Part shown: positions 2 through 58,405 of the stretch, in pieces | How the letters are laid out: every line of letters starts with the position of its first letter | Position numbering within the stretch: position 1 is the stretch's first letter | Origin: an uncultured Gammaproteobacteria bacterium | GTDB lineage: Bacteria; Patescibacteriota; Microgenomatia; Levybacterales; GWA1-39-11 | Direction: 5' to 3' | DNA: 64,000 bases | NCBI GenBank assembly: GCA_964651815.1 | Contig: CAZYWG010000005.1 | Coordinates: 27,053-91,052 of the forward strand | Made by a program: the position numbers and the translations under genes | The notes under the pieces: model-generated | Told to the model about the DNA's origin: nothing | The model's database searches: none | Seen by the model: the letters and a program-made list of their open reading frames with translations, nothing else

Positions 2-2041
2 TCATTTTAGTTTAAACATCAAAATTATAATTCCAAAAATCGAAATTGAACTTACAAAAAGCCCTATATTTACCAAATCCTGCGGCGAGTAATAGACGTC
101 AAATTTATAAAACCCGTCTTGAGGTATTACAAAACTATTTAACTTCTGATTCTTCGATATTGAATACTGAATACTCGATACAGAATACCCTTTAGCTCTT
201 GCTACCCATCCCGGATCGAACCCTTCTGAAAAAACTAGAACGTCCCCTTTTCTTGCGTTGTTAACTTCAACGTCGTATTTTACCGGATTAACATTTTTGT
301 AGTTAATATTAATATTCTGGTTCTGGCTCCAGAAATGGTCGCGAACCCCATTTACTTCAAAAACCACAATTTTCCCAAAGTTTTTAACTTTTTTAAGCCA
401 TTTTATTTTTTCAAAACCCTTAACATATGACGAATATACTTTCTCACTATACTTTCTATCATTTAAGAAAATCTTGCCTTGTATATCAGACGGAATGATA
501 ATATATTTGATATTCTCTTCTTCAATTTGCTTCTCGTCATTACTAATTTTCCGAGCTAAAGCGCTCTCCGAGTATAAATTGTAATAATCTTGGGCCGCAA
601 TAATAGGATGGGTTGATGAATAAAAAGAGAATTGTGTAAAATTGGGTACCCATAGGGTCCTAAAAAAATGTTTTTGATTACTCATATAGTGTGTCAAATT
701 TTGATATTCAACTGGAATTTTGGTTGTCTTAAATGTTCCACTAACTTGTCCAGCAACAGCCTGGCGAATTGTTAACACCCAAAACAAAATAAATACACAG
801 ATAAGTGCCTTTTTTAAATTTAGATTTTTAAATTTATTTGAAAATTGAAAATTAAAAATTGAAAATTCAGTATTAGATTTTAACAACTCAGATATTTCGA
901 AAAGAGTAATCGGAATCAAAACGGAATATGAAATTGCAATTATCCCATACCATTTTGTTGAATCACGAAACATTACAAATCCTGGAAATTTTTGAAAAAG
1001 AAATACATAAAATTGCCCAAAAGGATCATTTGAGCCTTTAGCTAAGAACACGCCAATAAGTGCAATGAGCGAGAAAAATATTATTTTGTTTTTTTTCTGG
1101 TGATTGCGAATTATTAATAGTACGGCAAAAGCCAAAACTGGAATTACTAAAAATTCAGGTTGCATAAAATAAACTTTCCCAAAAATATTATCCGGCCAAT
1201 TGGGATGAAGTAGTGAAATTGTATTTTCAAAAGTAGCAAAACTTAAAAATTTAACAATCCCATCATTTGTGTATGCCGCCCCCAAACTTCCTAAGGGGTT
1301 TTGTCTAAATACTGCAAACGGGAAAAGCCAAAAAAAATGGATTAAAACAGTGACTAAACCGGGTATAACAGAAAACGGTATAAAAGTTTTGAATAATTTT
1401 TTTAAAAATCCGTTTTTTAAAATAAACAGCAAATAATAAACTGCAATAAGAACTAAAGTCACATAACCAATCCGCAAATCAAAGGCAATCTGCAGGGAGA
1501 AAATGACGCCTGCAATTATCGCCGACTTCAATTTATTTTGGTTATCCAAGATATTTAAAAACCCATAGGCAACCCATGGAATCAACGCGTAACCCATTCC
1601 AACACCTATTTGCCCTCCCCCCACAATCATTAGAGAATAAGAATTTGTAGTAAATATTAAAGATGATACGAGTGCTAACAAATTATCCTTTAAAAAATGT
1701 CTTTTAAAGAAAACATATGCTCCGGAAAGAGAAACTATAAGAAACGGAATAAACCAAACTAGCTTTTCAATTATTTCCCAAGGGATATGAAAGATATTAA
1801 AAGGTATTGCGCTTGTTGCAAGAGAATATGTATTAAGCGGTAATAGAAATATTATGCTTCCACCTACGCCATTGTTAAAATTAGCATCCCAACCAAACGG
1901 GAAAGACGCAAATTCACGAATTGTCTCAGGAAATCTATATCCCCAATCGCCAGCCGATAGTGAAAACGGTAAAAACCAAGATTTGAAAATGAGGAATAAA
2001 ATTAATACAAAATAGAGATAAATAAATTTGTTAATTTTCAT
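2..2041 (-). CDS. Large polytopic membrane protein, family A (GT-C-like candidate). The C-terminus runs off the window edge, so no stop codon is seen.
   Basis: 679-aa ORF with many hydrophobic segments. The N-terminal region (GDWGYRFPETIREFASFPFGWDANFNNG, and KFPGFVMFRDSTKWYG) is paralogous to the N-terminal region of 10612..13995. The C-terminal part carries DPGW...SFVIPQDGFYKFDVYY followed by a hydrophobic anchor. The ORF reaches coordinate 2. Confidence 0.6.
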   Translation of the reverse strand: MKINKFIYLYFVLILFLIFKSWFLPFSLSAGDWGYRFPETIREFASFPFGWDANFNNGVGGSIIFLLPLNTYSLATSAIPFNIFHIPWEIIEKLVWFIPFLIVSLSGAYVFFKRHFLKDNLLALVSSLIFTTNSYSLMIVGGGQIGVGMGYALIPWVAYGFLNILDNQNKLKSAIIAGVIFSLQIAFDLRIGYVTLVLIAVYYLLFILKNGFLKKLFKTFIPFSVIPGLVTVLIHFFWLFPFAVFRQNPLGSLGAAYTNDGIVKFLSFATFENTISLLHPNWPDNIFGKVYFMQPEFLVIPVLAFAVLLIIRNHQKKNKIIFFSLIALIGVFLAKGSNDPFGQFYVFLFQKFPGFVMFRDSTKWYGIIAISYSVLIPITLFEISELLKSNTEFSIFNFQFSNKFKNLNLKKALICVFILFWVLTIRQAVAGQVSGTFKTTKIPVEYQNLTHYMSNQKHFFRTLWVPNFTQFSFYSSTHPIIAAQDYYNLYSESALARKISNDEKQIEEENIKYIIIPSDIQGKIFLNDRKYSEKVYSSYVKGFEKIKWLKKVKNFGKIVVFEVNGVRDHFWSQNQNININYKNVNPVKYDVEVNNARKGDVLVFSEGFDPGWVARAKGYSVSSIQYSISKNQKLNSFVIPQDGFYKFDVYYSPQDLVNIGLFVSSISIFGIIILMFKLK

Positions 2042-2142
2042 TTGCTTAATGAATTATAGTTGATTATGTAAATCTTCTGCCACAAATGAATTCTATCATT
2101 TATCTTTATACTTTTAACATTGCAAATAACGCTAATTGCTTG

Positions 2143-2898: not shown

Positions 2899-4551
2899 TT
2901 ACAATTCTTGTCTAACTTTTTTAGAAATGTCCTTGACACTAAAATCTTGCTCATTATATTCAAGAGCAATAACAACACCACTTGATAATTTGTTTTCCTT
3001 CAAAACGTTTTTTAATAAGCCAATATCCGTGAAATAACCAAAACTCCTATCGCCTATCCTTCTGTACCCTTGTGAGTTAAGGTTCAATAAAAAGTCGTGG
3101 TTTAAAAACTTTCCCCATGTCGTTTCATTCCCAACAGAATATTTAACTAAAATATTCCAACCCGCTCCAGAACTAAAAGGTAACACCCAGTCCGGAGATA
3201 AACCAAATTCACTGTTGCGATAACACTTAACTTTGCACACAATATAAAAAATCGTGTTATTCGGAATGCTTGGATGAACTGCTTTGACATTGTTTAAAAA
3301 TGTGCGTCTTGCATATCCGCCGGTAACTTTATATTTTACTGCGGCTTGAATCTGTGAATATGAAGAATAAAAAAGTAGAACTAAAATAATTACTGCTACC
3401 ACTTTCTTAAATTTGTCCGCAACTTTAAATTTTCCGCTCGAAGAAAAAAGAAAGACTATGAATAAAGATGTAAAAAATAAAACAGGAACACTTGATAAAT
3501 ACAGATACCTTTCATCAACTATGTTTAAGTTCCTACCAGCAAATGAAAGTATTATGGCATTTAATAATATCCAACAAGAAAAGAAAATAATATATTTCAA
3601 CTTATCTTTGTTTTTCCAAAAAAACATTGATGCTGCAAATATCCATACAATTACACTGAAAAGGGAAATAAATGCCAAATCCATAAATACAGGATAGGCT
3701 TGTACAAATGAGACAGATATGCTCGGGTATGCCCAGGAAGTTTTATTAATTAGTAAATTAAAAACACCTGCAGCACTTATTAAGTTTTGTACAACAAGTT
3801 TTATTGGTAAACTCAATAAATTATAGATAACTGAGTTAAAATCAAAGCTTGATTCTTTAGGAATTGGGTCAATATTAAAAGCCTGAGAGACAACTCTAAT
3901 TATGAGAAACAAAAAAAGTCCTACAGCCAAATACATAAATGCTTTAATATTTCTTCCATTTAATTTCTCTCTATCGAAAGTCAGTAAATATACAACAAGT
4001 AAAGGCACTATAATAAAACCGTCTTCTCTAAATAACACCGAGCATAAAAACAAGCCGAAGAGAATAAATATATTCTTTATTGCAAAATATTTTTCCTTTA
4101 TACTCGCCAGATATATAAAAAATAAAACTATAAAAATGAAAGAACTTATGGTTGTCGAAAATATCGCTAAATGCATAAATGCTTCATAAGCTCTCCCATT
4201 GGTAGCAAAAAGAGTTGCCGTCAAAAATCCAATTCTATTATTTTTGCTGATTTTTGAGGTAAAAATAAAAACGAGTAACGTAGCTAAGGCATGCATCAAG
4301 AGCTCAATAAGAACATAATACTGTGAGTTCAATACAAAAACCTTATAAAGAATTAACCAAAAATAAAGTCCCAGGGGATTAAAATGGACGCCTTTACTAA
4401 TTAAGAATATCCACCAGGGTTGATTGTATGAATATATTATGTCGCCAAAAGCCCCCCATTCATCCTGCTGAAAAAAATTACCAAACAGACCATGAGTAAA
4501 GAATAAAATAATGGCGAAAAATAAAATGAAGTACAAAATATATTTCTTCAT
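2899..4551 (-). CDS. Polytopic membrane protein with a C-terminal soluble domain of about 170 aa; function unknown (possibly GT-C-like).
   Basis: 550 aa. The N-terminal roughly 380 aa are strongly hydrophobic. A DEWG motif sits near the first loop (FFQQDEWGAFGD). The tail is hydrophilic and rich in Cys, Gly and Arg. Confidence 0.55.
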   Translation of the reverse strand: MKKYILYFILFFAIILFFTHGLFGNFFQQDEWGAFGDIIYSYNQPWWIFLISKGVHFNPLGLYFWLILYKVFVLNSQYYVLIELLMHALATLLVFIFTSKISKNNRIGFLTATLFATNGRAYEAFMHLAIFSTTISSFIFIVLFFIYLASIKEKYFAIKNIFILFGLFLCSVLFREDGFIIVPLLVVYLLTFDREKLNGRNIKAFMYLAVGLFLFLIIRVVSQAFNIDPIPKESSFDFNSVIYNLLSLPIKLVVQNLISAAGVFNLLINKTSWAYPSISVSFVQAYPVFMDLAFISLFSVIVWIFAASMFFWKNKDKLKYIIFFSCWILLNAIILSFAGRNLNIVDERYLYLSSVPVLFFTSLFIVFLFSSSGKFKVADKFKKVVAVIILVLLFYSSYSQIQAAVKYKVTGGYARRTFLNNVKAVHPSIPNNTIFYIVCKVKCYRNSEFGLSPDWVLPFSSGAGWNILVKYSVGNETTWGKFLNHDFLLNLNSQGYRRIGDRSFGYFTDIGLLKNVLKENKLSSGVVIALEYNEQDFSVKDISKKVRQEL

Positions 4552-10298: not shown

Positions 10299-10625
10299 TT
10301 ATTTTTTTAGATTGTCTTTCAATAACAAAAGTGCTCCGGTAAACAAAAGAAAATAGCTTACATTTCCTAAAATCTCAGCAAGAAAATTGCTATTTATAAG
10401 AACTAGCAGCATCATTGCAAAAAAAAGTGAAACTCCAATTTTAATAAGACTTATCCCGTTTAATCCTGCAATAAATAAAATGCCAATCCACATAAATCCC
10501 GTTATTGAATATGGCAAGTACAAGTTAAGGTAAGGAATCTGTGGTAGTATAAAAAGACTAAAAGTAATTAATATTAAACCAACATAAAGTCCTTGTTTGT
10601 TAAAAGAAATTCTATTTTTTTCCAT
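10299..10625 (-). CDS. Small polytopic membrane protein (about 108 aa, 3-4 transmembrane segments). It could be a GtrA/GtcA-like small flippase.
   Basis: I recomputed the start to Met19 of the track ORF (MEKNRISF...; ATG at 10625-10623). The protein is hydrophobic throughout. Confidence 0.4.
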   Translation of the reverse strand: MEKNRISFNKQGLYVGLILITFSLFILPQIPYLNLYLPYSITGFMWIGILFIAGLNGISLIKIGVSLFFAMMLLVLINSNFLAEILGNVSYFLLFTGALLLLKDNLKK

Positions 10626-13600
10626 TCTTGCGACTATTGCTCCATAGTATATATGCAACCTGCAAAATAATAAACCCAAAAGTCAAAACAAGTCCTATTG
10701 AAAATAATTTTTGATTTTTAAATTGTAAACTAATCGTGGAATCCCCATTAGTATTCATACCCCAAGCATTTGCATAACCATTCATAACAAAATGGTTATC
10801 ATTCTTTTCATTGTTCGCATACATTTCCCATAGTGGAGAGTACCTTTCCGAAAAGAACAATATATATGGCTCTGTTGCTCCTTTAATGTCTACTCTATAA
10901 AGAGTTGGGTTTATTTTTGTAAATGAAACTTTTGGAGTACCATTAACTTTTTGTGACATATTTGTATAACTAAAAATTTCGGGAGTAACAATTTCCGTAA
11001 CTTGAATTTGCTTAAAAACCTGCGCTGGATCTATATCTTTTGCGGAACAAAACATAACATTTGCTCCCGTATCATTTGATTTTCCTGAAAACTGGACGTT
11101 AACTGAATCTTCTATTGAATCCGGAAAATTCAATTCAATGTCAGGAACCAAAGAATGTGGTTTTAGATTTTTTGAGCTCTCAGTTGTAAATGGAATATAA
11201 TACCTAAATACATACATAGATCCTCCTAAATGGGAATCAACATCTGCCGTTATAAGATACTTTTTTAAACCAGAATACGCAGGTATTGAAGATGTAATAC
11301 AATTAAGATCTTCTCCTTTGATTGTTGCAGGTTTGCCCACAGATCTTGTAAATAAATTTGGCATTGAAAAGTTAAGCGTTAATTGTTTATCTTGATGGTT
11401 TGTGGGAATTTCCTGATTTAGATTTAAATCCGAAAAAGCAAATTTTTGTCCGTCTATCTCATATGAAACAGGCAGAACAACATTTCCCTGAATATCACGT
11501 GGGAGTGTGTTTGAATTTAGATCTATTTTTCCACCAGAATTTGTAATGTCGTAAACATATGTATTTCTCCAGTGATTTGGATTTAACTCAGTATATATAT
11601 CACGATTAATATTTTTCATTTTTTCTGTATCTCGGATGAGACTTGACGCAATAGGATTTTGTAAATCTAGCTTGGAGAGATCAAGTCCATGATTTAAAAT
11701 CAACAACTGTAAAGTCATATAATCTTGAATACGCTTTATTTCACTGTAATTCTCGCTTTTTTTATAACTGTTTAAATAAATTGAATACAGCTGATCCAAA
11801 TAGTCTGACAAAAGATGTAGAGACTTCATCCACGTGGGCGAGGGATTCGCTTTGAAGTCTATCCTTTGAAGCTCAACCGTTCTTTTAAGCGACAACCCTA
11901 ACAATGCATTTGTCTTCTCATCTATAGTTCCCGCGCGATTAAGGCTTCTTTTTTCGAGCCAAAGTTTTAACGGATAAAAAAATGATGTAGGTAAAATCTT
12001 AGGAGATGTAATATCTGCCGAGATACCGGAAGTAAGAATTCCACAAGAAATGCAAGGAAGACTCGTAAATGTGCCCTGTACAGGAACGCTATTTTTTTCA
12101 TCTTCCGAATTATCTGTAAAATACCTGTAATTCGTGTCAACTATTGCACTGACTGGCGTATCTTTGGCAATTAAGTTCATAGACCCAATTGCCCTAATTT
12201 GTTTTGGGGTAACATCTTTTATTTCATATAAATCCCAGGCACCTTCTTGCCATATTTTACTGAAAACATCCGTGTTTTTGTCCAAAATCGCAGAATATAA
12301 TTGCGGATCTTCAGATAAGGATTTATCGTAATTAAAGGCAACATCGTGTGTTACCAATATATATTTAACATTTGTACTTTCTGCAAGAGATTTTAATAGT
12401 CTGAAATCACCAGTTCTTAGACTGGAATTCAAAGCACTTATGGTCTCATCTTCTGCAGTGTTATACCCAAATGCATCATTAATAACAAATCCTTTTCCAG
12501 TAACTAATGAAAATATTGGATAGGCAGCCCAATAACCCCAAGTATAAGCTTTTATATCACCAAAGTAGTTTGGGGGCGGGACAACTAACGTTCTGTATTC
12601 ACTTTTTTGTACATTGGCTTTCGCAAGATCCTTTACATAATCGGGAACTTTTAACATTGAACTAAAAGGTGCATCAAATGCAAAATTAGAATTAGTAAAA
12701 AAAGGATAATTGAAAGAAATTACAAAAGCCAAACACAAAATACCGAACAGAATACTTCTTTTAGGTAAAAATTTTACACTTAAGTTTGCAACCGTTACTC
12801 CTATTAGGATCGCAAACGCAAAGTAAACAATCGGCATGAATTTATAATAAGGTGATCGGAAAGCAGCAAATCCGGGTACTTTCTCCATCAATAAAATAAA
12901 TATATTCCCAAGCGGAGGATGAGCTCCTGCAGAAAAAAATAAACCCACCAAGGCAAGTATTACAAAGAAAAGGATATTATTTTTTTCTTTGTGAATTTTA
13001 GTAGTCAGTGGAGCAACAAAAGCTGCTATAGGAAAAATGAAGCTGCCTATGATTAATAATGGATTTTTCAAAAAAGGGTATGACCAAAGAAATGGCTTAT
13101 CATACCAATTGTTGTCACCATTTAGCCTGAAAAGATTTATAAGACTTGTATAAACGCTTATTGACTTAGCCCATTCAACTGCACCACTTACCCCCCCCAC
13201 TATTGTTACCTGATTTCCATATTGCAAATTAAAAGAAGCGAGAAACGGCAGTAAATAATAAGCGTTACTTAGAATAAAAAGTATCCCGCCCCAGAGAAAA
13301 AGTGTTAAAAATCGCTTTACATAATTAAACCCCTCGTTTTTAAAATTTACAAAAAGAAAATATAAAAAAATCAGAGCGGAGGAAATAATCACGGGCCCTA
13401 TCAATGGCACTCCCCGTATTCCCCCGGCACTAAAGAAAAAGTAAACTAAATTAAGATAAATAGCACTTTTTAATGCAGAAGTCTTTTTGTCAATAAACCT
13501 CAGTATAAAAAGTAAAAAAAGTGGAAGAAGAGCGTAGGAAACAAGAATCGCCTGTTCTCCTTGTAGCCAGAAAGAGTAAATATGCAGATTAAATATATAG

Positions 13601-47452: not shown

Positions 47453-48387
47453 TTATGTAATAACTCGGAATCCTTTTTTCTATATTGTTTTTTTTGTTTT
47501 TTCCTTTTCTGAATTATAGCAGGAATTCTTACAACCGCATAGAAAAATCCAATAAAGAAAGCAGTATCAAAATTAATAATCGCGTGAGCAAAATGATATG
47601 GAAGCCAAAGTGTGTGCGAAATTATTAAATTAGAGTCTGTTATATTCTTCCAAATAAATGTGAATTGATTTCTATAAGCAATTTTTTTAATTTGATTATT
47701 TTTGTAATGTTTTTTAATTGCTCCTTTATCGTGATGGTGCTCAACTACACTTTTTGGTTCAAATAGAATGTTATATCCGGATTTTTGTGCTCTGTAGGAA
47801 AGATCTATGTCTTCCCAATAAAAAGGGTTGTATAACGGGTCAAACCCTCCAATTTCCTCAAATATCTTCCGGCGAATAAGGCTGCTTCCACCGGAAATCC
47901 AAAATGTATCTTTTTTGTCAACTTCTCCCCTAGAATGAACTAGAAAGCCCCGCGACCAGCGAGCAACTCCCCTTCCACGTAAAATTACTTTTTCTTCTTC
48001 AATGCTCTTATCCATTAATCCAACTCCAAAAAGTTCTTCATTTTTAACAAAATGTTTTATTGCATCATCTAAGAAATTTTCTTCTACGACAATATCAGTG
48101 TTCAAAAGAAAAACCAAATCGCTATTACAAGCACTCACGCCGTTGTTAACATTTGATGAAAACCCTAAATTCTTTTTGTTCCTTAACAACCTTAATTTTA
48201 TAGGGTGGGTTTTTTTTATTTTTTCAACAAAAATATTAAGAGCATTGAAATCCTCTTCTTTTGAAAAGTCATCTGTTATAACAATTTGGCCAACATTATA
48301 TTTTGAGATATATTTGATTAAAATCGGGAGATTTTTTTCTATCAAATTAAAACCGTTATAATTAGGAATTACTACATCTATTTTCAT
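47449..48387 (-). CDS. GT2 family glycosyltransferase.
   Basis: IDVVIPNYNGFNLIEKNLPIL; DxD region LLNTDIVVEE; C-terminal FYWEDIDLSYR (GT2 'ED' motif). Confidence 0.75.
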   Translation of the reverse strand: MKIDVVIPNYNGFNLIEKNLPILIKYISKYNVGQIVITDDFSKEEDFNALNIFVEKIKKTHPIKLRLLRNKKNLGFSSNVNNGVSACNSDLVFLLNTDIVVEENFLDDAIKHFVKNEELFGVGLMDKSIEEEKVILRGRGVARWSRGFLVHSRGEVDKKDTFWISGGSSLIRRKIFEEIGGFDPLYNPFYWEDIDLSYRAQKSGYNILFEPKSVVEHHHDKGAIKKHYKNNQIKKIAYRNQFTFIWKNITDSNLIISHTLWLPYHFAHAIINFDTAFFIGFFYAVVRIPAIIQKRKKQKKQYRKKDSELLHK

Positions 48388-50675
48388 AATAATGAGTCAT
48401 AAAATTCTATAGTGTGAGTCCCTGATGGCACTACGATTCCTCGAAAAGTGTAATCTGTTAAATATATTCTACCCGCTTCACCATCTATTTTAACTTTCCA
48501 TGTTGGATAATAAACATCTGTTAAAACCAAAAATCCTTCTCCTTTGTTGGTTGACACAAGTATTATTTTGTTTGCTGAATATTCATTAATTTTTACGAGT
48601 CCTGTTTCCCAGCTTTTTTTAAACCTTGAATCGTTACCCGAATTCTCTACTACGGCTACGTGGTTTAGCAAATTGTTTGGATCGAAAATCGCATTGATCG
48701 CGCTTTGCTTGTCACGAGCAGGTATTGTCGACGAAACAAAAAACGCTCGAGGGAATGCTAAAGTATTTTCATAAACATTTACGTGTCCCTCAGAAAGTAC
48801 AGGTGTTAACTTATCATCATGCAAAATAGAAGACGAAAGCACAAACCTAACTCCTAAGAAATCCGTCAGGCGCGATTTTGTATCTTGCAAAGTTATTATC
48901 CTATTAAATCCAAATGGTGTTGATATATCCGCTTTATTTCTTGAAGTTGCTGAAGCAAACTCACCGTAACGCATTAGATATAATGGATCATATCCATCTA
49001 CGGTTTGTAAATGATACATAACAGAAAAATTAGGTGGTAGAATTTGAGAGTCCGTGCTCATAACACGAAATAAGCCACTCTGGTTTTGTAAATATGATAA
49101 GACGCGAGTGCTCGGAAAGAGATATTCTTTATTTGTAAACGGTTCAAACTTCCAGCCAAAACGAATTAAATCAAAAAAAGTAAGTATCAGCAAAATTGAA
49201 AAAAACAGATAATCAATTTTGGGATTTTTTATTTTGTAGGTAAATCGTAGAATTATAAAAATTACATAAATGACTGAAAAGATAAAAGTAGGCAAAAATA
49301 GATTCTGCCTCGCAACCATTACTTGATCTTGTGTAAATATTCCAAAACTCCCGAACAACACAAATATCCAAAGTCCAATAAATACGAAGCTCGCGCCGGA
49401 AATTAGATAAATTATATTCTTTTTTTGTTTTGTGTAGTAATCAAAACCTAGCGCTGCAAGTACAGCCAATGAAAAATCTATTACAAAAATTAGCCTTGTA
49501 GGTTGTGCTGTAGACAAAAATGGAATATGTAAAACAAATGGAATTTTAGATATTTGAGTGGGTAATGCAAAGATTAACGATATGAGTAGGATCAGAAAGA
49601 ATAATATGGTTTTTTTATCACGCCTGAAAAAAACAGCAAAAAGCGCGGCCAAAAGTGGAAATATTCCTACATATCCAACAAACTCCGCGTAATTCCAAAT
49701 CCCTGTGTAATTTAGCGTTGCGGGATTTCCAAAAAAATCCGGGGCCACAAATTGAACTAAATTTTGCCACGGAATAAACCATCCGGTATTTTTGTAACCT
49801 ATAAGATCGGCGTCTCTTGCTGAAAGAAGAATGAATTGAAGACTAGGATACCATTGGACAAAAGTAATGAGCAAGAACAATGCATTTATAATAATGTAGG
49901 TTAACAATAGTTTGCCTTTATTTTTTTGCTCAAAAAGTCGGACCATAAAATATAATGATGACAAAACATACATATAAAAAAACGTTTGCAAATGTCCTGC
50001 AAAAAATGAAGAAATTAATGTGATAACTAAAATCAAACACCACACCCCCACTTTTTTGCTCATTATTGCTGCTTCTTTATTAATTATTCCTATCGTAATT
50101 TTGTCGATTGATAACAATATTAATGGCAGCCATAACGCAGTATTCAATATATTCCCCCACTCCATCCAGGCAACAAAAAATCCGCTAAAGGAAAACGTTA
50201 TTGCACCTAGTAAACATGCCTCTTTTTTAAGCTTTAAATTTTCAAGATACAAAAACATAAAAAATCCTGCGAGTATTGGCTGAAGAATTATTAAAAACGA
50301 CCATGCATTTTTGAATGGAAGAAAAAAATACAAAAAGTTTAAAGGGTAAAATGCGCTTGATTGAAAATTTGCAAGGAGCGGCGTTCCCGAAAAATTATAT
50401 GGATTCCAGATTGGAAGTTCCAGCTTTTTTCCTGCATCAATCACCAAATTCTTCCACGGATAAGTTTGCCTAACAGGATCTGTTATCAAGAAATTTTTGA
50501 ACGGGATACCTCTTGGATAATTGTTGGCGTAAATATCACGAAATGGATAATAAAGCCCGACAATCGTATCAGAAGGGATTGGTAATAAGTCTGAAATAAT
50601 AGTTTTCTGAAAGTAGAATAGACATGACAAAACTAATAAAAACAAAAATAAATTCTTTTTTATAAAATCAATCAT
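48384..50675 (-). CDS. YfhO-like GT-C membrane glycosyltransferase.
   Basis: 763 aa. N-terminal YYPFRDIY...TYPWKNLVIDAGKKLELPIWNPYNFSGTPLLANFQSSAFYPLNFLYF. C-terminal YYPTWKVKIDGEAGRIYLTDYTFRGIVVPSGTHTIEFY. Confidence 0.65.
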   Translation of the reverse strand: MIDFIKKNLFLFLLVLSCLFYFQKTIISDLLPIPSDTIVGLYYPFRDIYANNYPRGIPFKNFLITDPVRQTYPWKNLVIDAGKKLELPIWNPYNFSGTPLLANFQSSAFYPLNFLYFFLPFKNAWSFLIILQPILAGFFMFLYLENLKLKKEACLLGAITFSFSGFFVAWMEWGNILNTALWLPLILLSIDKITIGIINKEAAIMSKKVGVWCLILVITLISSFFAGHLQTFFYMYVLSSLYFMVRLFEQKNKGKLLLTYIIINALFLLITFVQWYPSLQFILLSARDADLIGYKNTGWFIPWQNLVQFVAPDFFGNPATLNYTGIWNYAEFVGYVGIFPLLAALFAVFFRRDKKTILFFLILLISLIFALPTQISKIPFVLHIPFLSTAQPTRLIFVIDFSLAVLAALGFDYYTKQKKNIIYLISGASFVFIGLWIFVLFGSFGIFTQDQVMVARQNLFLPTFIFSVIYVIFIILRFTYKIKNPKIDYLFFSILLILTFFDLIRFGWKFEPFTNKEYLFPSTRVLSYLQNQSGLFRVMSTDSQILPPNFSVMYHLQTVDGYDPLYLMRYGEFASATSRNKADISTPFGFNRIITLQDTKSRLTDFLGVRFVLSSSILHDDKLTPVLSEGHVNVYENTLAFPRAFFVSSTIPARDKQSAINAIFDPNNLLNHVAVVENSGNDSRFKKSWETGLVKINEYSANKIILVSTNKGEGFLVLTDVYYPTWKVKIDGEAGRIYLTDYTFRGIVVPSGTHTIEFYDSLL

Positions 50676-51883: not shown

Positions 51884-51889
51884 ATTTAT

Positions 51890-52123
51890 ATGGATCCGCA
51901 AGTTCTTAATTCACCGTATTTGTTGCTGGTTCTTTTTGTTTGGTCTCTTTTTTGGAGTGGAATAGCACTTTGGAGAGCGGCAAATTTAAAGCAAAGAAAT
52001 TGGTTTATTGCTCTACTCGTACTACATACCGTTGGAATATTAGAAATAATTTATCTCTTTCGCTTTGCTAAAAAGAAAATGACTCTTGCTGAAATGCGCT
52101 CCTGGCTCCCAAATAGTAAATAG
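51890..52123 (+). CDS. Small two-TM membrane protein, DUF5652-like.
   Basis: 77 aa. LFWSGIALWRAANLKQRNWFIALLVLHTVGILEIIYLF resembles the conserved core of a small-protein family that is abundant in CPR genomes (recalled, not searched). Confidence 0.5.
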   Translation: MDPQVLNSPYLLLVLFVWSLFWSGIALWRAANLKQRNWFIALLVLHTVGILEIIYLFRFAKKKMTLAEMRSWLPNSK

Positions 52124-52283: not shown

Positions 52284-52526
52284 TTGATACGTGTGGAAGA
52301 AAAACTTGCAAACAATCCTGACTTAACAGTAGGTCAAAGATATAGACTCGAATGGAATTTTTGGGCTTTGAGACACCAATTGACGTTTGGACGAATGCGT
52401 AAAACAGGTGGAATAAAATTACCTGAATATCTTAAATCAACAAATCCTAATAATCCGCACTATGAACCGGTCGAAGAAACCTATCACAGATTAAGAGCAG
52501 CAATTAGGCCCTACTCTCAAACCTAA
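52284..52526 (+). CDS. Hypothetical small protein (80 aa, TTG start). The coding status is doubtful.
   Basis: The ORF begins with TTG and has no in-frame ATG upstream (a TAA at 52257). I recognise no motif. It lies in the only non-glycosylation gap. Confidence 0.2.
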   Translation: MIRVEEKLANNPDLTVGQRYRLEWNFWALRHQLTFGRMRKTGGIKLPEYLKSTNPNNPHYEPVEETYHRLRAAIRPYSQT

Positions 52527-52550
52527 GCTATCTGTTTGAGCGCTGTTTTT
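52516..52550. terminator. Weak hairpin (CTCAAAC, 11-nt loop, GTTTGAG) followed by CGCTGTTTTT, at the convergence of the 52284..52526 (+) and 52528..53283 (-) genes. It may be a terminator for plus-strand transcription.
   Basis: Inverted repeat at 52516-52522 and 52534-52540, and a T-run at 52546-52550. The stem is only 7 bp and AT-rich. Confidence 0.25.
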
Positions 52551-53283
52551 CCCACAGCTTTGCGTAGGTTATAAATAGTGAAAATGCTTGGTAAATTCCT
52601 TCTATCACGCCTGTAGTTCCATTCTTCCACCCTCCCTGGCCAAAATATGACCCAATAAACTCTGTAATCATGACTCTTGGAAAACGCCACAGGCTCATCT
52701 TAGGATGAGATGATTTTAACCGTAAGTCAGATTCATACTCAGACCACTCATTAGTTTTTGCAACCATTTGCTCTAAATTACGGTGAGTATAATGTAAGAT
52801 AGGCTCTTTTATTGTTGCTAGTCTCCCTTGGACAATTGGTGATTCGTGTACAACGCCCCGCCACTCTTTTAATTTAGACTTTTTAAAAACGCGCCCCACA
52901 CGATCAGCAAAATTCCAATCCTTTCCGTAAAAAAAAGTTTTGCGACGAACCCAAAACCCAACTACTTCAGGATTCTCCCGGGTGTTTTGAATTTTGAGTT
53001 TTAATTCGTGTATAAACTCATTTGTAGCGCGTTCATCGGAATCAATGTAAAAAATCCATTCGTTTTTTGCAACTGACGCAGCCAAATTTCTTTGGTCTGC
53101 AAAATTTCTGAATGTATTCTTGACAATATTTGCTCCTAATTTTTCTGCAATTTCTGGCGTCGAGTCTGTAGAATCATCAATAACAATTATTTCGTCTGCA
53201 AAACTCTTGACAGATTTTATAGCGTCTCCAATTACATCCTCTTCGTTTTTTGAAATTATGAGTACTGAGATTTTTTCTTCCAT
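52528..53283 (-). CDS. GT2 family glycosyltransferase (paralog group with 34751..35533 and 59332..60267).
   Basis: ISVLIISKNEEDVIGDAIKSVKSFADEIIVIDDSTDSTPEIAEKLGANIV and the C-terminal LHYTHRNLEQMVAKTNEW block. Confidence 0.8.
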   Translation of the reverse strand: MEEKISVLIISKNEEDVIGDAIKSVKSFADEIIVIDDSTDSTPEIAEKLGANIVKNTFRNFADQRNLAASVAKNEWIFYIDSDERATNEFIHELKLKIQNTRENPEVVGFWVRRKTFFYGKDWNFADRVGRVFKKSKLKEWRGVVHESPIVQGRLATIKEPILHYTHRNLEQMVAKTNEWSEYESDLRLKSSHPKMSLWRFPRVMITEFIGSYFGQGGWKNGTTGVIEGIYQAFSLFITYAKLWEKQRSNR

Positions 53284-55592
53284 AAATACATTGCAACACT
53301 TACAGTTCCTAGAGCACCTAAAACTGCGAGGGTTAATCCAATTTTAAAGCTTGAAGGATAATAAGTAAATGTTATGAGGTGCTGACCTTCTGGAACTATT
53401 ACTCCTCTAAACGTATAATCAGCTCTGTAAATTTTTGTCGGTTTGCCGTCCACAAAAGCTTCCCACCCTGAATAAAAAGGGTCAGTTAAAACAAGAAGGG
53501 CCCGATTCTTAGTGGTTGTTTGAATGCTAACCCTGTTAGATTCATAAGACTTTATCACTGCATCACCCAGCATATCATTTGATAGAGGAACAATAGGGTT
53601 ATCTTCCAGAACTGCTGTTTTACTTAAATCTAAATCTTTCAGAAATATAGTTTGCAAAATTTCCCTGGTATCCGTAATCTTTTTGTAATTTGAAACTACA
53701 AAAGCACGTTTAAATGCCTTGTTGTTAGTCAAGATTTGATATTTATCATCAGCATATGTCAGTTGGAATTGATCAACCGGATAAGTCCAAAATGGAAAAG
53801 CCCAGATAGCGCGTCCGTCTGCAACTTTGTGAATTATGTATTTTACTCCGAGAAAATTTATAATTCGTCCTGTGTAGACAGCATTTTTTGAGAGGTTAAC
53901 AACAGATCTTTCCGGCGTATGATATTCCCCATCCGGTGCTGCATTGATAAATTCACCATATCTACCAATATACAATGGGTCATATCCTTCTAATCCTCCA
54001 ATTCTAAGTGTAAGTGCTAATTCCTGGCCAAAAGAGCCAAATGCTCTATCATAACTATTTGACCCTGAGATAACCTTTTGAATTGGAACATCTGGATATA
54101 CTAAATTCTTTGGGTCAAAAGGTTGCCACTTTGCAGCAAATCTATAACTATCAAATGCACATATCAAAATTATTAGGACACCGAAAATGGTGATTATTTT
54201 TTTACTCTTTCCAAGTCTTGATAGAATAAATCCAATTAGGAACATTCCAAAGAAAACTGTGGGAAGTTTTAAGTTTGAAAGTGCTGTTGGAATTTGTTCT
54301 ACCGGTATAAAAAGTTTCAGCAAGATTGTTGTCCAAAGTACACCAAAAGTTAATAAAAATGCTGTGCACAAGATTGTAGTTTTGTTAAATTTTTTGTTTT
54401 TAACATCAGACATTAAATTTTCATATCCAAATGCTGCAAGCACAGCAGCTGAAAAACTAAAAATGACGATAACACGACTTGCAGCGCTAGTGGAAAGTAC
54501 TGGAACCCGGGCAGCTACTAATAAGTCCAGAAGAGGTGTTTGAAAAGCAAGTAAAATGGAAATGATAGAACCTAAAGCAAAAAAGATCACGTAAGGATTT
54601 TTTTTCCTAAAACTATTGAAAGCCAGAATTAAAGGGATTAAACCAATGTATGAATTCCACTCTGCGTAATGCCCAAACCAAGCATTACGTGTCACAGGAT
54701 TACCAAATATGTCGGGAGCGAGTAACGTAGGGAAATAGGTCCAGGGAATCACCTCCGTTTTCATAAATAATTGACTTCTGACTGATTGAGCGTATAGCTC
54801 TATTGATGGAAGAAGCTGCGGCGCACAAATTAACAAACCAGTACAAATTGAAATAACGCTTAATAAAGACTGCTCAATTTTTCTTGTCGTCGCGAACTTG
54901 AATAATATATAAGCAGTTGTAAATAACAAAAAGTATAGACTCGTTTGAAAATGGCCTGAAAAAAATGATAATGGAATTGAAGAAGTTAATAATACTGTAA
55001 AATACCATTTTTTTGTTTCATAAAAACGTTCTATAGCAAAAAGTGCGAGCGGTAAATATAAAATTGCATATACCAATGTCCCGTAAGCCATCCAAGTTGT
55101 TATAAATCCACAAAACATAAAAGAAATTGCTGATACTAAACTCGCAACATTTGAAAGCTTTAATGATCTGACAAATAAATAGGTAAAAATACCTGCAAGA
55201 AGCGGCTGAAATAAAATTTGAATACTCCACGCATTAACGAATGGCAAAATAAAATAAATGAAATTAAATGGAGATAGTGCGGCGGACTGATAATTAGCAA
55301 GAAGTGGTGTCCCAGAAAAACTATATTGATTCCACAAAGGGATAGAACCACTTTTCCAAATATCTATTACTAATTTTTTCCAAGGGTAAATTTGACCAAT
55401 TACATCAGGTGTAGCTGTATTTTTTACAAGTCCAGAGAAACTAACATATTCGTTCCAGGGTCCAAAATTTGTGGCAAGATATGTAGAAGGAAATGGAATT
55501 TTTCCGGAAATAAAATAAGGGCTTGAGAAAACAAACCAAATCAAAACAATAACAGCAATAGGCCAGATCTTATTTATTTTTAACATCGACAT
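53256..55592 (-). CDS. YfhO-like GT-C membrane glycosyltransferase.
   Basis: 778 aa. N-terminal IYPWKKLVIDIWKSGSIPLWNQYSFSGTPLLANYQSAALSPFNFIYFILP. C-terminal FYSGWEAFVDGKPTKIYRADYTFRGVIVPEGQHLITFTYYP followed by a TM anchor. Confidence 0.65.
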   Translation of the reverse strand: MSMLKINKIWPIAVIVLIWFVFSSPYFISGKIPFPSTYLATNFGPWNEYVSFSGLVKNTATPDVIGQIYPWKKLVIDIWKSGSIPLWNQYSFSGTPLLANYQSAALSPFNFIYFILPFVNAWSIQILFQPLLAGIFTYLFVRSLKLSNVASLVSAISFMFCGFITTWMAYGTLVYAILYLPLALFAIERFYETKKWYFTVLLTSSIPLSFFSGHFQTSLYFLLFTTAYILFKFATTRKIEQSLLSVISICTGLLICAPQLLPSIELYAQSVRSQLFMKTEVIPWTYFPTLLAPDIFGNPVTRNAWFGHYAEWNSYIGLIPLILAFNSFRKKNPYVIFFALGSIISILLAFQTPLLDLLVAARVPVLSTSAASRVIVIFSFSAAVLAAFGYENLMSDVKNKKFNKTTILCTAFLLTFGVLWTTILLKLFIPVEQIPTALSNLKLPTVFFGMFLIGFILSRLGKSKKIITIFGVLIILICAFDSYRFAAKWQPFDPKNLVYPDVPIQKVISGSNSYDRAFGSFGQELALTLRIGGLEGYDPLYIGRYGEFINAAPDGEYHTPERSVVNLSKNAVYTGRIINFLGVKYIIHKVADGRAIWAFPFWTYPVDQFQLTYADDKYQILTNNKAFKRAFVVSNYKKITDTREILQTIFLKDLDLSKTAVLEDNPIVPLSNDMLGDAVIKSYESNRVSIQTTTKNRALLVLTDPFYSGWEAFVDGKPTKIYRADYTFRGVIVPEGQHLITFTYYPSSFKIGLTLAVLGALGTVSVAMYLWKKKSQYS

Positions 55593-56739
55593 GAAAAACG
55601 TTTAATATTTTTAGTATTGCAGATGTTGCAAGAATATACAAAAAAGGCAAAAGAGGCAAAAAATATCTGACTGATGTATATCCTACTGAAAGCATTAAAC
55701 TGTAAACTACAATCCACAAAAGCATTAAAATCTCCGGCGATACCATCTTCGTTCTCTTTAGGTAGGTAACAAACAACGCTACTATAATTAGAACTACAGA
55801 TAATGGCCAAATTATGTTCCAATTTACGTCATGCAAAATTGCCCTTGTCCCCCACCAAGTATGCCAATTATTAAAAAGTAACAAATCCCAAAAAGAAAGC
55901 GGATTAGTAATGGCAGACTTGTGGTAAAGAAGAATATATTTTTGTACACCCAATATCTTTATCAAAGAATATCCGTTGATAATAGTAACCGTATAAGATA
56001 AGAACAATATGATAAGTGAAAGTGGTTGCAACAGAAGAAATGTAATAAACTTTTTACTAAAGTCACGTCTAAATATAAAAAACAGAATCATAGAGATAAG
56101 CATAAAAACTCCAGTGATAAAAAATCGAATACTAATTACAAATCCAATCCCCAAGGCAACAAGCACAAACCATCTTATATAATTTTTACTGTCGACTCCT
56201 TTTAAAAAGAAATAAAATGTGAACAATATAAAAGGGAGTTGTGCAACTTCTCCAAGTGGCGTGGTAGATAATTTTTCAATCATTAAAGGCTCATTTAAAA
56301 AAATCGCCAATGGAATTAAAGCAAATGCATTCTTATTAAGTAGGAATTTTCCCAGTAAAAAAACTGCACATCCGGAAGCAAAAAAAAGAGGAATAGTAAA
56401 CGTATTTTCATTATCAAAAAGTAAAATTGAAAGTGAAACAATATATCTTCCTAAAGGTGGATGATCATGAACAATTAGTATTGGGCTGAGACCCCTTAAA
56501 AAGATTCCTCCTGCAAAAGCTTCGAACGTTTCATCGGGAATAATAACTGGGTTTTTCTTTTTTGCATATTGGGATGAATAATATAAGCTTTTGAGAGCAG
56601 GATATTCTTTAGCATAATGTCTTGAAAAAAATTTGTCTCTATTTTTGTAAATTGTGTTTATCGGGTTAATTAAGATTAAAAGAAGAAAAATTAGTGCAAA
56701 CAACTTATTTGATAATATCTTGTTAATTTTTAGTAACAT
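55570..56739 (-). CDS. Polytopic membrane protein (389 aa); unclassified GT-C-like candidate.
   Basis: About 10 hydrophobic segments. It sits between a family B gene and a YfhO-like gene. Confidence 0.5.
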   Translation of the reverse strand: MLLKINKILSNKLFALIFLLLILINPINTIYKNRDKFFSRHYAKEYPALKSLYYSSQYAKKKNPVIIPDETFEAFAGGIFLRGLSPILIVHDHPPLGRYIVSLSILLFDNENTFTIPLFFASGCAVFLLGKFLLNKNAFALIPLAIFLNEPLMIEKLSTTPLGEVAQLPFILFTFYFFLKGVDSKNYIRWFVLVALGIGFVISIRFFITGVFMLISMILFFIFRRDFSKKFITFLLLQPLSLIILFLSYTVTIINGYSLIKILGVQKYILLYHKSAITNPLSFWDLLLFNNWHTWWGTRAILHDVNWNIIWPLSVVLIIVALFVTYLKRTKMVSPEILMLLWIVVYSLMLSVGYTSVRYFLPLLPFLYILATSAILKILNVFHVDVKNK

Positions 56740-58405
56740 AAAGTCTTTTTGGAAAAATTAAAAGTCCAATTATTATAAAAGCCGATACAATAGAAATTAA
56801 TTCCGACAAAATCCTAATTTTTGTATCCTTAAATATAACGTCAACTGTGTGGTTTCCCGAAGTTATAAAATAAGTAATCAAACCACGATTTGCAGGATCT
56901 TGAAACTGAACCTGATCATCTTTAACACCATCAATATAAACTGTCCAATTGGGAAAATATAAAGTGTTCTCACGAATTTCACTATTGGTAGATGCAATTA
57001 TTCGATATTTATGGTGTGTTGAATTTCTTGAAGTCAGATCAATTTTAGCCTGTCCTCCAATTACTTCTGCCTGTGCCGCGGGTTTTTTCTCCATGAATCT
57101 GACTGACCAAATCGGTGCACTTTCCCCAGTATCAGTCGTGCCATTATAAACTCCCGAATAAAAAGATTCAGGTTTTATAATATATCCGATTGGTTGCCAG
57201 TAATTCCATTGAAAGATAAGAATGAAGAGCATGGAAAATAAAAGAAGAATGAATTGATTTTTTTTACTAGTTTTATTAACAACTATGGCTCCCATAACTG
57301 CTGCGGCAAAAATGGCAGTTGCAAGAAATCTCCATGGGAATTGAAATTTTTCAAGAATGCTAAAAGTTTTCCAAACAAAAGTTGAAATGGAAAGCATAAT
57401 AAAAACGCTCCCTAAAAAGTACAGAATAACACTTAAGTATAATATTAGACTTGTCTTTTCTTTATTGAAACGCTTGTAAGCAGTAGCCAAAAATGCCAAG
57501 ACTGCAATCCATTGTAAAAGTCCTAATTGGACAGAAAAACTTCCTGACAATCCATAAATCCAAGACCCATAAAACAAATCTTTTATCTGGACAAAATGGT
57601 AAAACGCCTCATCTTTTGTCACTATATCTCTCAATGTGTATTTACCTTCTAAAAGCGCCGGAACCCAAAAAAAAGCAGCTAAACCAAATCCTAAAATTAA
57701 CGCACTCATAAATTGATACGCAAGGATTTTTCTGTTTTTAGAATTGTAGATTAAATAAACGCCATACAAAGTTATAAATGGTAAAAACATAAGACTCATA
57801 GCGTTATGCGCTAAGATAAGAGCGCAAATTGAAACCGATATTCCGGCAAAATATGCAGAATTAATTTGCTTAAGTCTTGTCACAGATTCAGCGTTATTTG
57901 AACTCTTAAGCATGAAAAATAAAATTAGCGGAGGGAAAATAAAAGCTACTTGTTCTCCAATATCTCCCCTAATATAAAAGTCCACAAATCTATATGGTGC
58001 AAAATTATAAAGAACTGAGCCTATTGTTGCTGCAGTTTCCCCTAAAAATTCATTCAGCCAAAGATACATCGTGATTCCACTTAGAATGAATGCCATACCC
58101 ATAACTAATTTGAATGAATCAACAAAGGAAAATCCCAAAAAATGAAATAATGAAGAAACATAAGAAGGTAAAGGGTAAAGAAACGTTAAAATAGGATGTC
58201 CGTATCCCCAATTTAAATTTCCTGCCCATCGAGGAATAATATTACCCTCTGAAAGTGACAAATAAAAATTAGCTATTCTGGCAACATGATCCTGCCCGTC
58301 GTGGGTGAGTGGAAGACCTGTGTGAAACAGAGGAACAACAGGAATAAAACTGAGAACCAGAATTATAATAATGCCAAAATGCTTTTTAAATAATTTCTCC
58401 AACAT
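56723..58405 (-). CDS. Family B polytopic membrane protein (YfhO-superfamily-like GT-C candidate), paralog B3.
   Basis: THDGQDHVARI...IIPRWAGNLNWGYGHPILTFLYPLPSYV at the N-terminus. YFPNWTVYIDGVKDDQVQFQDPANRGLITYFITSGNHTVDVIF near the C-terminus, followed by a TM anchor. Confidence 0.65.
   Translation of the reverse strand: MLEKLFKKHFGIIIILVLSFIPVVPLFHTGLPLTHDGQDHVARIANFYLSLSEGNIIPRWAGNLNWGYGHPILTFLYPLPSYVSSLFHFLGFSFVDSFKLVMGMAFILSGITMYLWLNEFLGETAATIGSVLYNFAPYRFVDFYIRGDIGEQVAFIFPPLILFFMLKSSNNAESVTRLKQINSAYFAGISVSICALILAHNAMSLMFLPFITLYGVYLIYNSKNRKILAYQFMSALILGFGLAAFFWVPALLEGKYTLRDIVTKDEAFYHFVQIKDLFYGSWIYGLSGSFSVQLGLLQWIAVLAFLATAYKRFNKEKTSLILYLSVILYFLGSVFIMLSISTFVWKTFSILEKFQFPWRFLATAIFAAAVMGAIVVNKTSKKNQFILLLFSMLFILIFQWNYWQPIGYIIKPESFYSGVYNGTTDTGESAPIWSVRFMEKKPAAQAEVIGGQAKIDLTSRNSTHHKYRIIASTNSEIRENTLYFPNWTVYIDGVKDDQVQFQDPANRGLITYFITSGNHTVDVIFKDTKIRILSELISIVSAFIIIGLLIFPKRLYVTKN

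Follow-up and report, generated by a model that had tools for sequence, protein, structure and literature searches.

The window, a stretch of 64,000 nucleotides, carries on its minus strand seven genes for large membrane proteins, all of them present at the coordinates listed in the initial annotation. Three are of PTPS_related type (28645..30327, 45099..46748 and 56723..58405), two of YfhO type (48384..50675 and 53256..55592), and the remaining two, 2..2041 and 10612..13995, are more divergent. Hydropathy analysis predicted 8-13 TM segments in these proteins, and a homologous all-beta domain of ~80-100 residues follows a homologous polytopic GT-C core in all seven. The occurrence of a common C-terminal module, which had been suggested from the letters of the sequence, was confirmed by the motif, by HMM searches and by enriched profile-profile comparisons (Table 1). 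Small GT2 genes adjoin the membrane protein genes (46715..47452, 47449..48387, 52528..53283 and 58424..59335), and none of the window genes was identified as a GtrA-type flippase. Fifteen GT-C genes occur within these 64 kb, in a candidate-phylum bacterium whose genome is probably small, and this number points to an elaborate surface glycan or glycoprotein coat.

Table 1. Coordinates of the C-terminal modules and terminal membrane helices in the window.
Feature	Coordinates	Strand	Residues	Sequence	Basis
Module, PTPS_related-type GT-C 45099..46748	45198..45551	(-)	400-517, sandwich core ~436-514	VYFPGWKVYVDK...VPNGKHKAEIKF	Regex, cross-family HMMs, enriched profiles, AlphaFold pLDDT >94 over sandwich
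Terminal membrane helix, 45099..46748	45105..45197	(-)	518-548, then KKK tail		Hydropathy, AlphaFold model
Module, PTPS_related-type GT-C 28645..30327	28729..29082	(-)	416-533	AYFPGWSAKIDG...IPPGNHSINIW	Regex, cross-family HMMs, isolated module vs Pfam YfhO 764-821/835 (E 2.5e-4)
Terminal membrane helix, 28645..30327	28654..28728	(-)	534-558		Hydropathy
Module, PTPS_related-type GT-C 56723..58405	56813..57178	(-)	410-531	LYFPNWTVYIDG...ITSGNHTVDVIF	Regex, HMMs
Terminal membrane helix, 56723..58405	56750..56812	(-)	532-552		Hydropathy
Module, YfhO-type GT-C 48384..50675	48387..48746	(-)	644-763	VYYPTWKVKIDG...VPSGTHTIEF	Regex, cross-family HMMs, Pfam YfhO positions 739-822/835; protein stops here, no terminal helix
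Module, YfhO-type GT-C 53256..55592	53343..53705	(-)	630-750	PFYSGWEAFVDG...VPEGQHLITFTYYP	Pfam YfhO 758-834/835 (E 2e-16), PgfM1/PgfM2 C-termini, enriched profiles
Terminal membrane helix, 53256..55592	53280..53342	(-)	751-771		Hydropathy
Divergent module, AftD-like GT-C 2..2041	86..397	(-)	549-652	LVFSEGFDPGWVARA...NSFVIPQDGFYKFDVYYS	Anchor-trimmed profile-profile vs YfhO C-terminus, null test, AlphaFold pLDDT 89.7, same strand pattern
Terminal membrane helix, 2..2041	8..85	(-)	653-678		Hydropathy, model
Divergent module, 1127-aa GT-C 10612..13995	10708..11034	(-)	988-1096	ILFFSERYSPLWEMYANN...NGDSTISLQFKNQ	2..2041-family HMM
Terminal membrane helix, 10612..13995	10642..10707	(-)	1097-1118, then RKNGKK tail		
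Possible degenerate half-module and anchor, PTPS_related paralogue 62409..63959	62442..62657	(-)	435-506	EYLPKNF...GFFTEVPGGLRSVKFK and helix	

The regular expression [YF][FY][PS][GNT]W was run over the 50 window ORFs of at least 150 aa and matched the PTPS_related-type and YfhO-type proteins, i.e. the five for which the full motif had been described, and no others. The match lies 40-75 residues before the C-terminus, and the signature (Y/F)-x-P-G-W…P-x-G-x-H occupies the same C-terminal position in each of the five. An HMM built on the three PTPS_related-type modules detected the two YfhO-type proteins with E values of 5.8e-8 and 4.6e-5, and the reverse HMM detected the PTPS_related-type trio (E 2.2e-9, 1.8e-5 and 1.5e-4). 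The two kinds of module were aligned by hhalign at 96 %, a value that rose to 99.2 % over 75 columns (E 1.4e-19) with enriched profiles. The Trp of the module is invariant and many polar residues are conserved, several of which (N, T, D, Q, R, H) are nearly invariant in the PTPS-type family. The other large membrane proteins of the window were searched for the module, which was absent; the candidates checked as additional carriers were 30269..32104, 2899..4551 and the PMT_2 paralogues, and the seven PMT_2 paralogues of the window bear a C-terminal domain of another kind.

Whole-protein searches against PF09586 (YfhO; gathering threshold 28.5 bits) returned 97.5 bits for 48384..50675 and 83.7 bits for 53256..55592, the other five proteins falling below the threshold. 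The module corresponds to positions ~740-835 of this model, its C-terminal end, and also to the C-terminal end of the NCBIfam PgfM1/PgfM2 models, and is thus not the newly defined domain that the initial annotation had taken it to be. When searched in isolation, the modules of 53256..55592, 48384..50675 and 28645..30327 matched PF09586 with E values of 2e-16, 8.7e-7 and 2.5e-4 (the last below threshold), while those of 45099..46748 and 56723..58405 match the YfhO C-terminus only by profile-profile comparison (99.2 %). PF10131 (PTPS_related, GT-C clan CL0111), which is listed as a family of function unknown (PMC7801869), scored 45.6 bits in 28645..30327, 50.3 in 45099..46748, 40.9 in 56723..58405 and 64.8 in 62409..63959, against a threshold of 26.4. 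In these four proteins the match is confined to model positions ~1-316 of 621, corresponding to the GT-C core; positions ~317-621 are unmatched, so the sandwich is left unannotated by PF10131. Among the best 73 full-length module matches in the database 67 carried PF10131 and 22 also PF09586, and a cut-off of E<=1e-3 gave 18,539 cluster representatives with the module. A literature search for YfhO in Patescibacteria returned no paper.

The degenerate versions of the module previously described in 2..2041 and 10612..13995 hold as well, but only at the profile level and by transitivity. Thin HMMs built from 2-5 window modules gave non-significant matches to both proteins (E 0.5-1.5) and were replaced by enriched profiles. 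The profile of the 2..2041 family then aligned with the YfhO C-terminus at 96.8 % (E 2.5e-10) with the membrane anchor kept, and at 91.7 % (E 8e-7) over 94 columns after trimming of the anchors, with an identity of only ~17 %. HMM-HMM comparison is therefore significant both here and between PTPS_related-type and YfhO-type modules. The family has Tyr in place of the His of P-x-G-x-H, and the Asp of VDG is not conserved. The anchor-free HMM of the 2..2041 family matched residues 988-1096 of 10612..13995 with a domain E value of 1.8e-11, while direct comparison of the latter with the YfhO and PTPS profiles yielded only E 0.03-0.09; all seven proteins are thus linked, the last two through the 2..2041 family and its match to YfhO. 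Searching for homologues by word index with the last 362 aa of 10612..13995 gave no match, and NCBIfam MmpA matched both divergent proteins weakly, far under its cut-off and within the membrane core.

The low identity and the non-significant direct HMM matches might suggest that the resemblance of these two proteins arose by chance or by convergence of short beta-hairpins, the module being real in five proteins only. In the same direction, the direct hhalign comparison of PTPS modules with the 2..2041 family (score 24.6, E 0.0036) fell within the shuffle null and was not counted. However, the anchor-trimmed comparison with YfhO scored 51.1 against 15.6±3.2 in 60 column shuffles (maximum 27.8) and 14.5 with a reversed profile, and its alignment extends well beyond the motif alone. 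Independent structural models agree in strand order and in the junction to the helix, and the N-terminal cores are homologous too, which makes a fortuitous resemblance very improbable.

AlphaFold models showed that the shared domain is beta-rich, as had been predicted, and folds as an 8-strand sandwich (pLDDT >94 in 45099..46748, 89.7 for the 2..2041 model). The models of the two families have identical strand order around the motif, with the motif residues at corresponding places in the two predicted structures: (Y/F)-x-P-G-W forms a loop between two strands, P-x-G-x-(H/Y) is the hairpin joining the last two strands, and the conserved residues fall at turns and strand ends. The last strand of the sandwich enters a single TM helix within 1-3 residues. 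A final hydrophobic helix, expected in most members, was found in six of the seven, the exception being 48384..50675, which ends ...FYDSLL directly after the module. The extracytoplasmic location assigned to the module agrees with its position between the GT-C core and the final helix, behind which lies a Lys/Arg-rich tail. The soluble stretch between core and module ranges from ~40 to ~560 residues.

The families joined by the module had been regarded as otherwise distinct, a view that the N-terminal GT-C cores contradict, since these are homologous over 300-370 columns. Among PTPS_related-type, YfhO-type and 2..2041-type proteins and 10612..13995 the core comparisons ranged from 94 to 99 %: 97.1 % over 303 columns for PTPS_related-type against YfhO-type, 98.2 % over 357 columns for PTPS_related-type against the 2..2041 family, and 98.9 % over 367 columns for the latter against 10612..13995. 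Unrelated polytopic controls remained below 4 %, and homology extends to PMT_2. An invariant Asp occurs just after TM1 in the PTPS-type sequences (D42, 63/63) and in the 2..2041 family (D32, 61/61), its counterpart in 53256..55592 being not obvious. The hallmarks of the GT-C superfamily are present: the core is polytopic, and its first extracytoplasmic loop carries a conserved acidic residue. Because of the extent of core homology, module and core look like an architecture inherited within one GT-C subgroup. A mobile domain recruited independently by unrelated membrane-protein families would agree with the separability of the module, which the PF10131 model leaves uncovered in these proteins, with the variable length of the region preceding it, and with the fused giant P0122, where a copy of the module follows a core called PMT_2 by Pfam. 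Yet such recruitment is improbable, as all families with the module have cores that are homologous to each other over nearly their full length, which is not so for the other polytopic proteins of the locus, the seven PMT_2 paralogues end in a different domain, and the module is constantly the last element before the final helix.

The closest known system is the YfhO family (YfhO of B. subtilis, S. aureus and L. monocytogenes, streptococcal PgtC2 and S. mutans PgfM1/PgfM2), which shares the C-terminal motif, the GT-C core and a large extracytoplasmic region before the last TM helix. In B. subtilis YfhO the last two TM helices are separated by an extracellular loop of 389 aa (PMC5836110), and hydropathy placed a large extracytoplasmic region at this point in 53256..55592 and the five non-YfhO members. 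Enzymes of this family are partnered by a GT2 lipid-phosphate-sugar synthase, and GT2 genes lie next to those of the window proteins. Unlike that family, only two of the seven window proteins qualify as YfhO by the Pfam threshold, 48384..50675 is devoid of the final helix, and the soluble part of the three PTPS-type proteins, linker and sandwich together, comprises only ~120 residues compared with ~250-390 in YfhO.

Mycobacterial AftD (PDB 6W98/6WBX/6WBY; PF11847) also combines a GT-C core, a periplasmic beta-sandwich and a helix back into the membrane: the core is followed by CBMs and a structural beta-sandwich, after which one TM helix returns (10.1101/2019.12.22.885152). AftD was the top solved-structure Foldseek match of the 2..2041 C-terminal model (E ~1e-2, AftD domain not specified), and PF11847 is pre-annotated on a few 2..2041 homologues; however, 2..2041 itself reached 11.7 bits (E 0.059) against a threshold of 26, 10612..13995 gave no match to PF11847, and the sequence searches gave no match to the AftD chains. 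The three CBMs, the four further C-terminal TM helices and the acyl-carrier-protein partner of AftD were not seen here, and its CBMs rise 30-70 Å above the membrane whereas the window module is pinned flush to it. PDB sequence searches with three profiles and three full-length proteins returned noise only (colicin D, TIM, Tlg1). The best solved-structure matches of the module model were accessory beta-sandwiches of glycoside hydrolases (GH30 side domain, sterylglucosidase 8EXD, GH146, GH5), small Greek-key-like domains of similar size, and 8exd_B was matched by both module models. All Foldseek matches of the module models were weak (E >= 5e-3); those to glycoside hydrolases had E values of 5e-3 to 0.2 and 12-21 % identity, without sequence relationship, and the matched domains are soluble with no membrane tether, in contrast to the module.

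Taken together, we favour with moderate confidence the reading that the C-terminal feature is a beta-sandwich close to the membrane, together with a re-entrant helix, belonging to one subgroup of the lipid-phosphate-sugar-dependent GT-C glycosyltransferases, and that it most likely serves as a general scaffold or cap; the subgroup takes in the YfhO-type and short PTPS_related-type enzymes and an AftD-like type that is common in Patescibacteria. The domain would lie on the outer membrane face, tethered at both ends, which would keep the sandwich at a constant height next to the extracytoplasmic active site, where the core has its post-TM1 Asp. Most likely it would complete the catalytic cavity on the acceptor side, stabilise it there and help to place the acceptor polymer, with no sugar-specific lectin role. 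Double tethering is not obligatory, since 48384..50675 lacks the anchor. Judging from their adjacency, the GT2 genes may make polyprenyl-phosphate-sugar carriers, from which the GT-C enzymes would move sugars onto an extracellular envelope glycan or protein. The repeats in the window would then represent paralogous expansion of one enzyme architecture in a very large envelope-glycan locus, with no domain shuffling. The acceptors of the YfhO family vary, from LTA/WTA at one end to Ser/Thr-rich regions of proteins at the other (PMC5836110, PMC12041528), and yet the motif is conserved, which favours a general positioning role; the location of the motif residues at turns, and the nearest solved folds being non-catalytic accessory beta-domains packed on glycoside-hydrolase catalytic domains, were also counted for a scaffold.

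These accessory domains belong to carbohydrate-active enzymes, and the module could instead be a lectin-like CBM that catches the acceptor glycan for the active site, a role that has been proposed for the AftD CBMs and the C-terminal domain of EmbC, with the invariant Trp and the many conserved polar residues as a candidate sugar site. AftD, the top match of the 2..2041 C-terminal model, has CBMs that bind arabinan (10.1101/2019.12.22.885152), the EmbC domain is reported to be a lectin-like CBM (PMC3044687), and a review suggests that YfhO may have extracellular carbohydrate-binding domains (PMC8035078). Substrate binding, proposed earlier for YfhO and AftD (PMC8035078), is plausible for the module, and the near-invariant polar residues of the PTPS-type module, more than a fold usually needs, could mark a real ligand or metal site. 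The beta-sandwich is the fold of CBMs but is not diagnostic by itself, and searching Pfam with the isolated modules gave no CBM family at a cut-off as loose as E<=10. Moreover, the motif is kept despite unrelated acceptors (polyglycerol-phosphate, ribitol-phosphate polymers, Ser/Thr-rich peptides; PMC5836110, PMC12041528), its conserved residues sit at turns and strand ends, the module lies flush with the membrane and not 30-70 Å above it as the AftD CBMs do, and the motif His and Asp are lost in the 2..2041 family, so that a lectin function is possible but unlikely. We regard as rather doubtful a separately uncurated domain family, made of sandwich and helix and defining a deep GT-C subclade, with the Trp, acidic and His residues in the acceptor or lipid-donor site; if true, module sequence could predict the acceptor class of >18,000 uncharacterised enzymes.

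As far as the sequences indicate, the tail is an ordinary inherited piece of YfhO-type architecture and no new link between unrelated families. The short PTPS_related-type family and the AftD-like Patescibacteria family, which lacks a Pfam assignment, can be read as GT-C transferases of YfhO architecture, which brings order into the annotation of an enzyme group that is very common but poorly described, and reveals no new mechanism. The domain boundaries can guide truncation tests and the design of expression constructs, and the profile can serve for a stand-alone domain model. Finally, the fourth PTPS_related paralogue, 62409..63959, which was absent from the earlier list, tentatively carries a degenerate half-module: hhalign returned 93.7 % (E 1.9e-7) with the anchor and only 17 % (E 1.4e-3) without it.

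All the ORFs named in the initial annotation were present, and the signature [YF][FY][PS][GNT]W was found in exactly the five core proteins to which it had been attributed, namely three of PTPS type (28645..30327, 45099..46748, 56723..58405) and two of YfhO type (48384..50675, 53256..55592), and in no others of 50 large ORFs, always 40-75 residues before the C-terminus. The C-terminal domain bearing it, here called the module, was recognized in both directions: a PTPS-type HMM detected the YfhO-type proteins (E 5.8e-8 and 4.6e-5), a YfhO-type HMM detected the PTPS-type proteins (E 2.2e-9, 1.8e-5 and 1.5e-4), and hhalign returned 96 % for the two. A profile search across 1.84 billion representatives supplied 151 module segments, and profiles enriched with these and with 34 YfhO-type C-termini gave 99.2 % with an E-value of 1.4e-19 over 75 columns, confirming that the relationship between the two families is significant at the HMM-HMM level. 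The module proved very common, a profile search detecting it in 18,539 cluster representatives at E<=1e-3. The terminal hydrophobic helix described behind the module was present in six of the seven proteins and missing from 48384..50675, which ends right behind the module. The residues following this helix form Lys/Arg-rich tails, which, by the positive-inside rule, would place the module outside the cytoplasm.

The two divergent members, 2..2041 and 10612..13995, were missed by thin HMMs built from few sequences (E 0.5-1.5), and the direct comparison of the PTPS module with the 2..2041 family scored 24.6, not above column-shuffled nulls (max 27.8). A 117-sequence profile of the 2..2041-family C-terminus matched the YfhO C-terminal profile at 96.8 % (E 2.5e-10), and at 91.7 % (E 8e-7, 94 columns) when both terminal helices were trimmed; this pair scored 51.1, compared with 15.6±3.2 for 60 shuffles and 14.5 for a reversed profile. 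An anchor-free HMM of the 2..2041 family matched residues 988-1096 of 10612..13995 (domain E 1.8e-11). These two matches therefore extend the module to all seven proteins, the divergent pair being linked only by transitivity at the profile level. The observation is correct, and the initial annotation was perceptive about its degenerate members. The 1127-aa protein 10612..13995 also carries ~560 soluble residues (~430-988) between its core and the terminal module. The only family match in this region was a faint one to DUF5667, which also matches the small ORF 33229..33807, and by analogy with AftD the region may hold extra beta-sandwich or CBM-like domains.

The module had been proposed to link otherwise distinct families; this did not hold, since the N-terminal membrane cores are homologous as well. 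PTPS-type cores matched those of YfhO type at 97.1 % (303 columns), of the 2..2041 family at 98.2 % (357 columns) and of 10612..13995 at 94.3 % (347 columns), while the last two matched each other at 98.9 % (367 columns) and are paralogues; as a control, two unrelated polytopic proteins from the same locus scored <4 %. The Asp directly after TM1, a GT-C hallmark, was invariant in the PTPS type (63/63 sequences) and the 2..2041 family (61/61). PMT_2 paralogues share a related core, but their C-terminal domain is another one and lacks the motif. The simplest reading would be vertical inheritance of the whole architecture (core, sandwich and helix) with paralogous expansion, and recruitment of a mobile module is disfavoured against it, as the cores are homologous too. 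Four giant predicted public proteins matching the module profile, P0121 (1670 aa), P0122 (3329 aa), P0186 (3051 aa) and P0188 (1608 aa), consist of 2-4 GT-C units of the YfhO, PTPS_related and PMT_2 kinds joined in one chain, with a copy of the module behind every unit. In P0122 one copy lies behind a core assigned to PMT_2 by Pfam. These proteins could be true fusions or gene-calling read-through.

The module corresponds to the last ~95 positions of the Pfam YfhO model and to the C-terminal end of the NCBIfam PgfM1/PgfM2 models. PF10131 was found in 67 of the 73 full-length top matches and PF09586 also in 22, so that existing database annotation already links the PTPS and YfhO types implicitly, although PF10131 does not extend over the sandwich of these proteins. 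The module is thus an ordinary part of GT-C enzymes of YfhO architecture, inherited with them and for the most part annotated before. The modest novelty is that sandwich and helix together can be marked off as a domain of their own, that this domain joins the YfhO and short PTPS_related families with the Pfam-less AftD-like one of Patescibacteria, and that a fourth PTPS paralogue may have a partial, degenerate copy.

Residues 396-549 of 45099..46748 were predicted as eight beta-strands followed by a 30-residue helix (mean pLDDT 86, core >94), and the last 259 residues of 2..2041 (pLDDT 89.7, pTM 0.80) as an alpha/beta subdomain, a beta-sandwich and a helix, in this order. Anchored on the motif Trp, the secondary-structure strings of the two models were nearly superimposable, which is an agreement of topology and not a 3-D superposition. 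In both predicted models (Y/F)-x-P-G-W forms a loop joining two strands, P-x-G-x-(H/Y) the hairpin of the final two strands, and the membrane helix starts 1-3 residues past the last strand. The Trp was invariant in all alignments made; in the 2..2041 family the motif His is replaced by Tyr and the Asp of VDG is lost. In the PTPS type a second conserved motif lies within the ~40 residues that separate the last core helix from the sandwich. Its consensus is FY...Y..TTDTGES.PIWS, in which the Trp is nearly invariant, and its low pLDDT in the isolated model suggests probable packing on the GT-C core.

Family membership and gene context make sugar transfer from lipid carriers the most likely activity of these GT-C enzymes, which would draw sugars from polyprenyl-phosphate carriers supplied by adjacent GT2 enzymes and transfer them, on the outer side of the membrane, to a protein or an envelope polymer. 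The module would be a membrane-flush sandwich, tethered at each end, and would complete the catalytic cavity on its acceptor side. We favour this scaffold or positioning role, in which the placement relative to the active site is presumed, because the motif is kept across enzymes with LTA, WTA and Ser/Thr-rich protein acceptors, unrelated to one another within the YfhO family (PMC5836110, PMC12041528), because the signature residues are located at turns in the predicted models, and because the nearest folds in Foldseek, although weak matches, are non-catalytic structural side domains. A true CBM is a serious rival, owing to the AftD and EmbC precedents and to the many polar residues conserved within the PTPS type. 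AftD was the top, weak Foldseek match of the 2..2041 C-terminal model (E 9e-3, prob 1.0, ~120 columns), and the isolated module model weakly matched accessory beta-sandwich domains of glycoside hydrolases; PDB sequence searches returned no solved structure related by sequence. The cryo-EM structure of AftD (10.1101/2019.12.22.885152) has three CBMs and a structural beta-sandwich in addition to its GT-C core, and one helix that returns to the membrane; a review proposes for AftD, "and potentially also YfhO", extracellular carbohydrate-binding domains that would bind the acceptor (PMC8035078).

As judged by Pfam annotation, the window (64 kb, GC ~33 %) is a single very large envelope-glycan locus, whose genes nearly all form one co-directional array on the minus strand. 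It encodes NDP-sugar epimerases/dehydratases, one nucleotidyltransferase, methyl-, acetyl- and carbamoyl-transferases, ~10 GT2 and five GT4 enzymes, three Wzx-like Polysacc_synt proteins and fifteen polytopic membrane proteins of GT-C type; no GtrA-type flippase was identified within the window. Homologues bore such names as Candidatus Levybacteria and Patescibacteria group bacterium, and a metagenome-assembled contig contained the same genes. The fifteen GT-C genes and the three Wzx-like flippases, with ~15 GT2/GT4 genes beside them, lie on one Levybacteria/Patescibacteria contig. In a lineage whose genomes are generally known to be small, this is an unusually heavy outlay on extracytoplasmic glycosylation. 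A literature search returned no paper naming YfhO together with Patescibacteria. Four further proteins of the array matched nothing in Pfam or NCBIfam and showed no detectable kinship to the GT-C cores; they may be polymerase/ligase-like parts of the pathway.

Features of the locus and their coordinates in the window
Feature	Position	Strand	Remarks
PTPS_related (PF10131), n=4	28645..30327, 45099..46748, 56723..58405, 62409..63959	-	Pfam
YfhO (PF09586), n=2	48384..50675, 53256..55592	-	Pfam
PMT_2, n=7 GT-C genes		-	Pfam
GT-C without Pfam family, n=2	2..2041, 10612..13995	-	faintly AftD-like
Small GT2 genes	46715-47452, 47449-48387, 52528-53283, 58424-59335	-	directly adjoin module-bearing GT-C genes, often overlapping
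Four further proteins	2899-4551, 30269-32104, 32104-33216, 55570-56739	-	two with 11-12 predicted TM segments
Only sizeable array gap, 776 bp	51753-52527		short ORFs only
77-aa two-helix membrane ORF in the gap	51890..52123	+	
Second PTPS-type motif	45431-45551	-	equivalents in 56723..58405 and 28645..30327
Putative half-module and anchor of 62409..63959	62442-62657	-	residues 435-506 align to module second half and anchor

Finally, the fourth PTPS_related paralogue, 62409..63959, has only ~80 soluble residues ahead of its terminal helix. Its residues 435-506 matched the second half of the module at 93.7 % (E 1.9e-7) with the anchor and at 17 % (E 1.4e-3) without it, and the protein may carry a degenerate half-copy of the module in which the Trp is lost.
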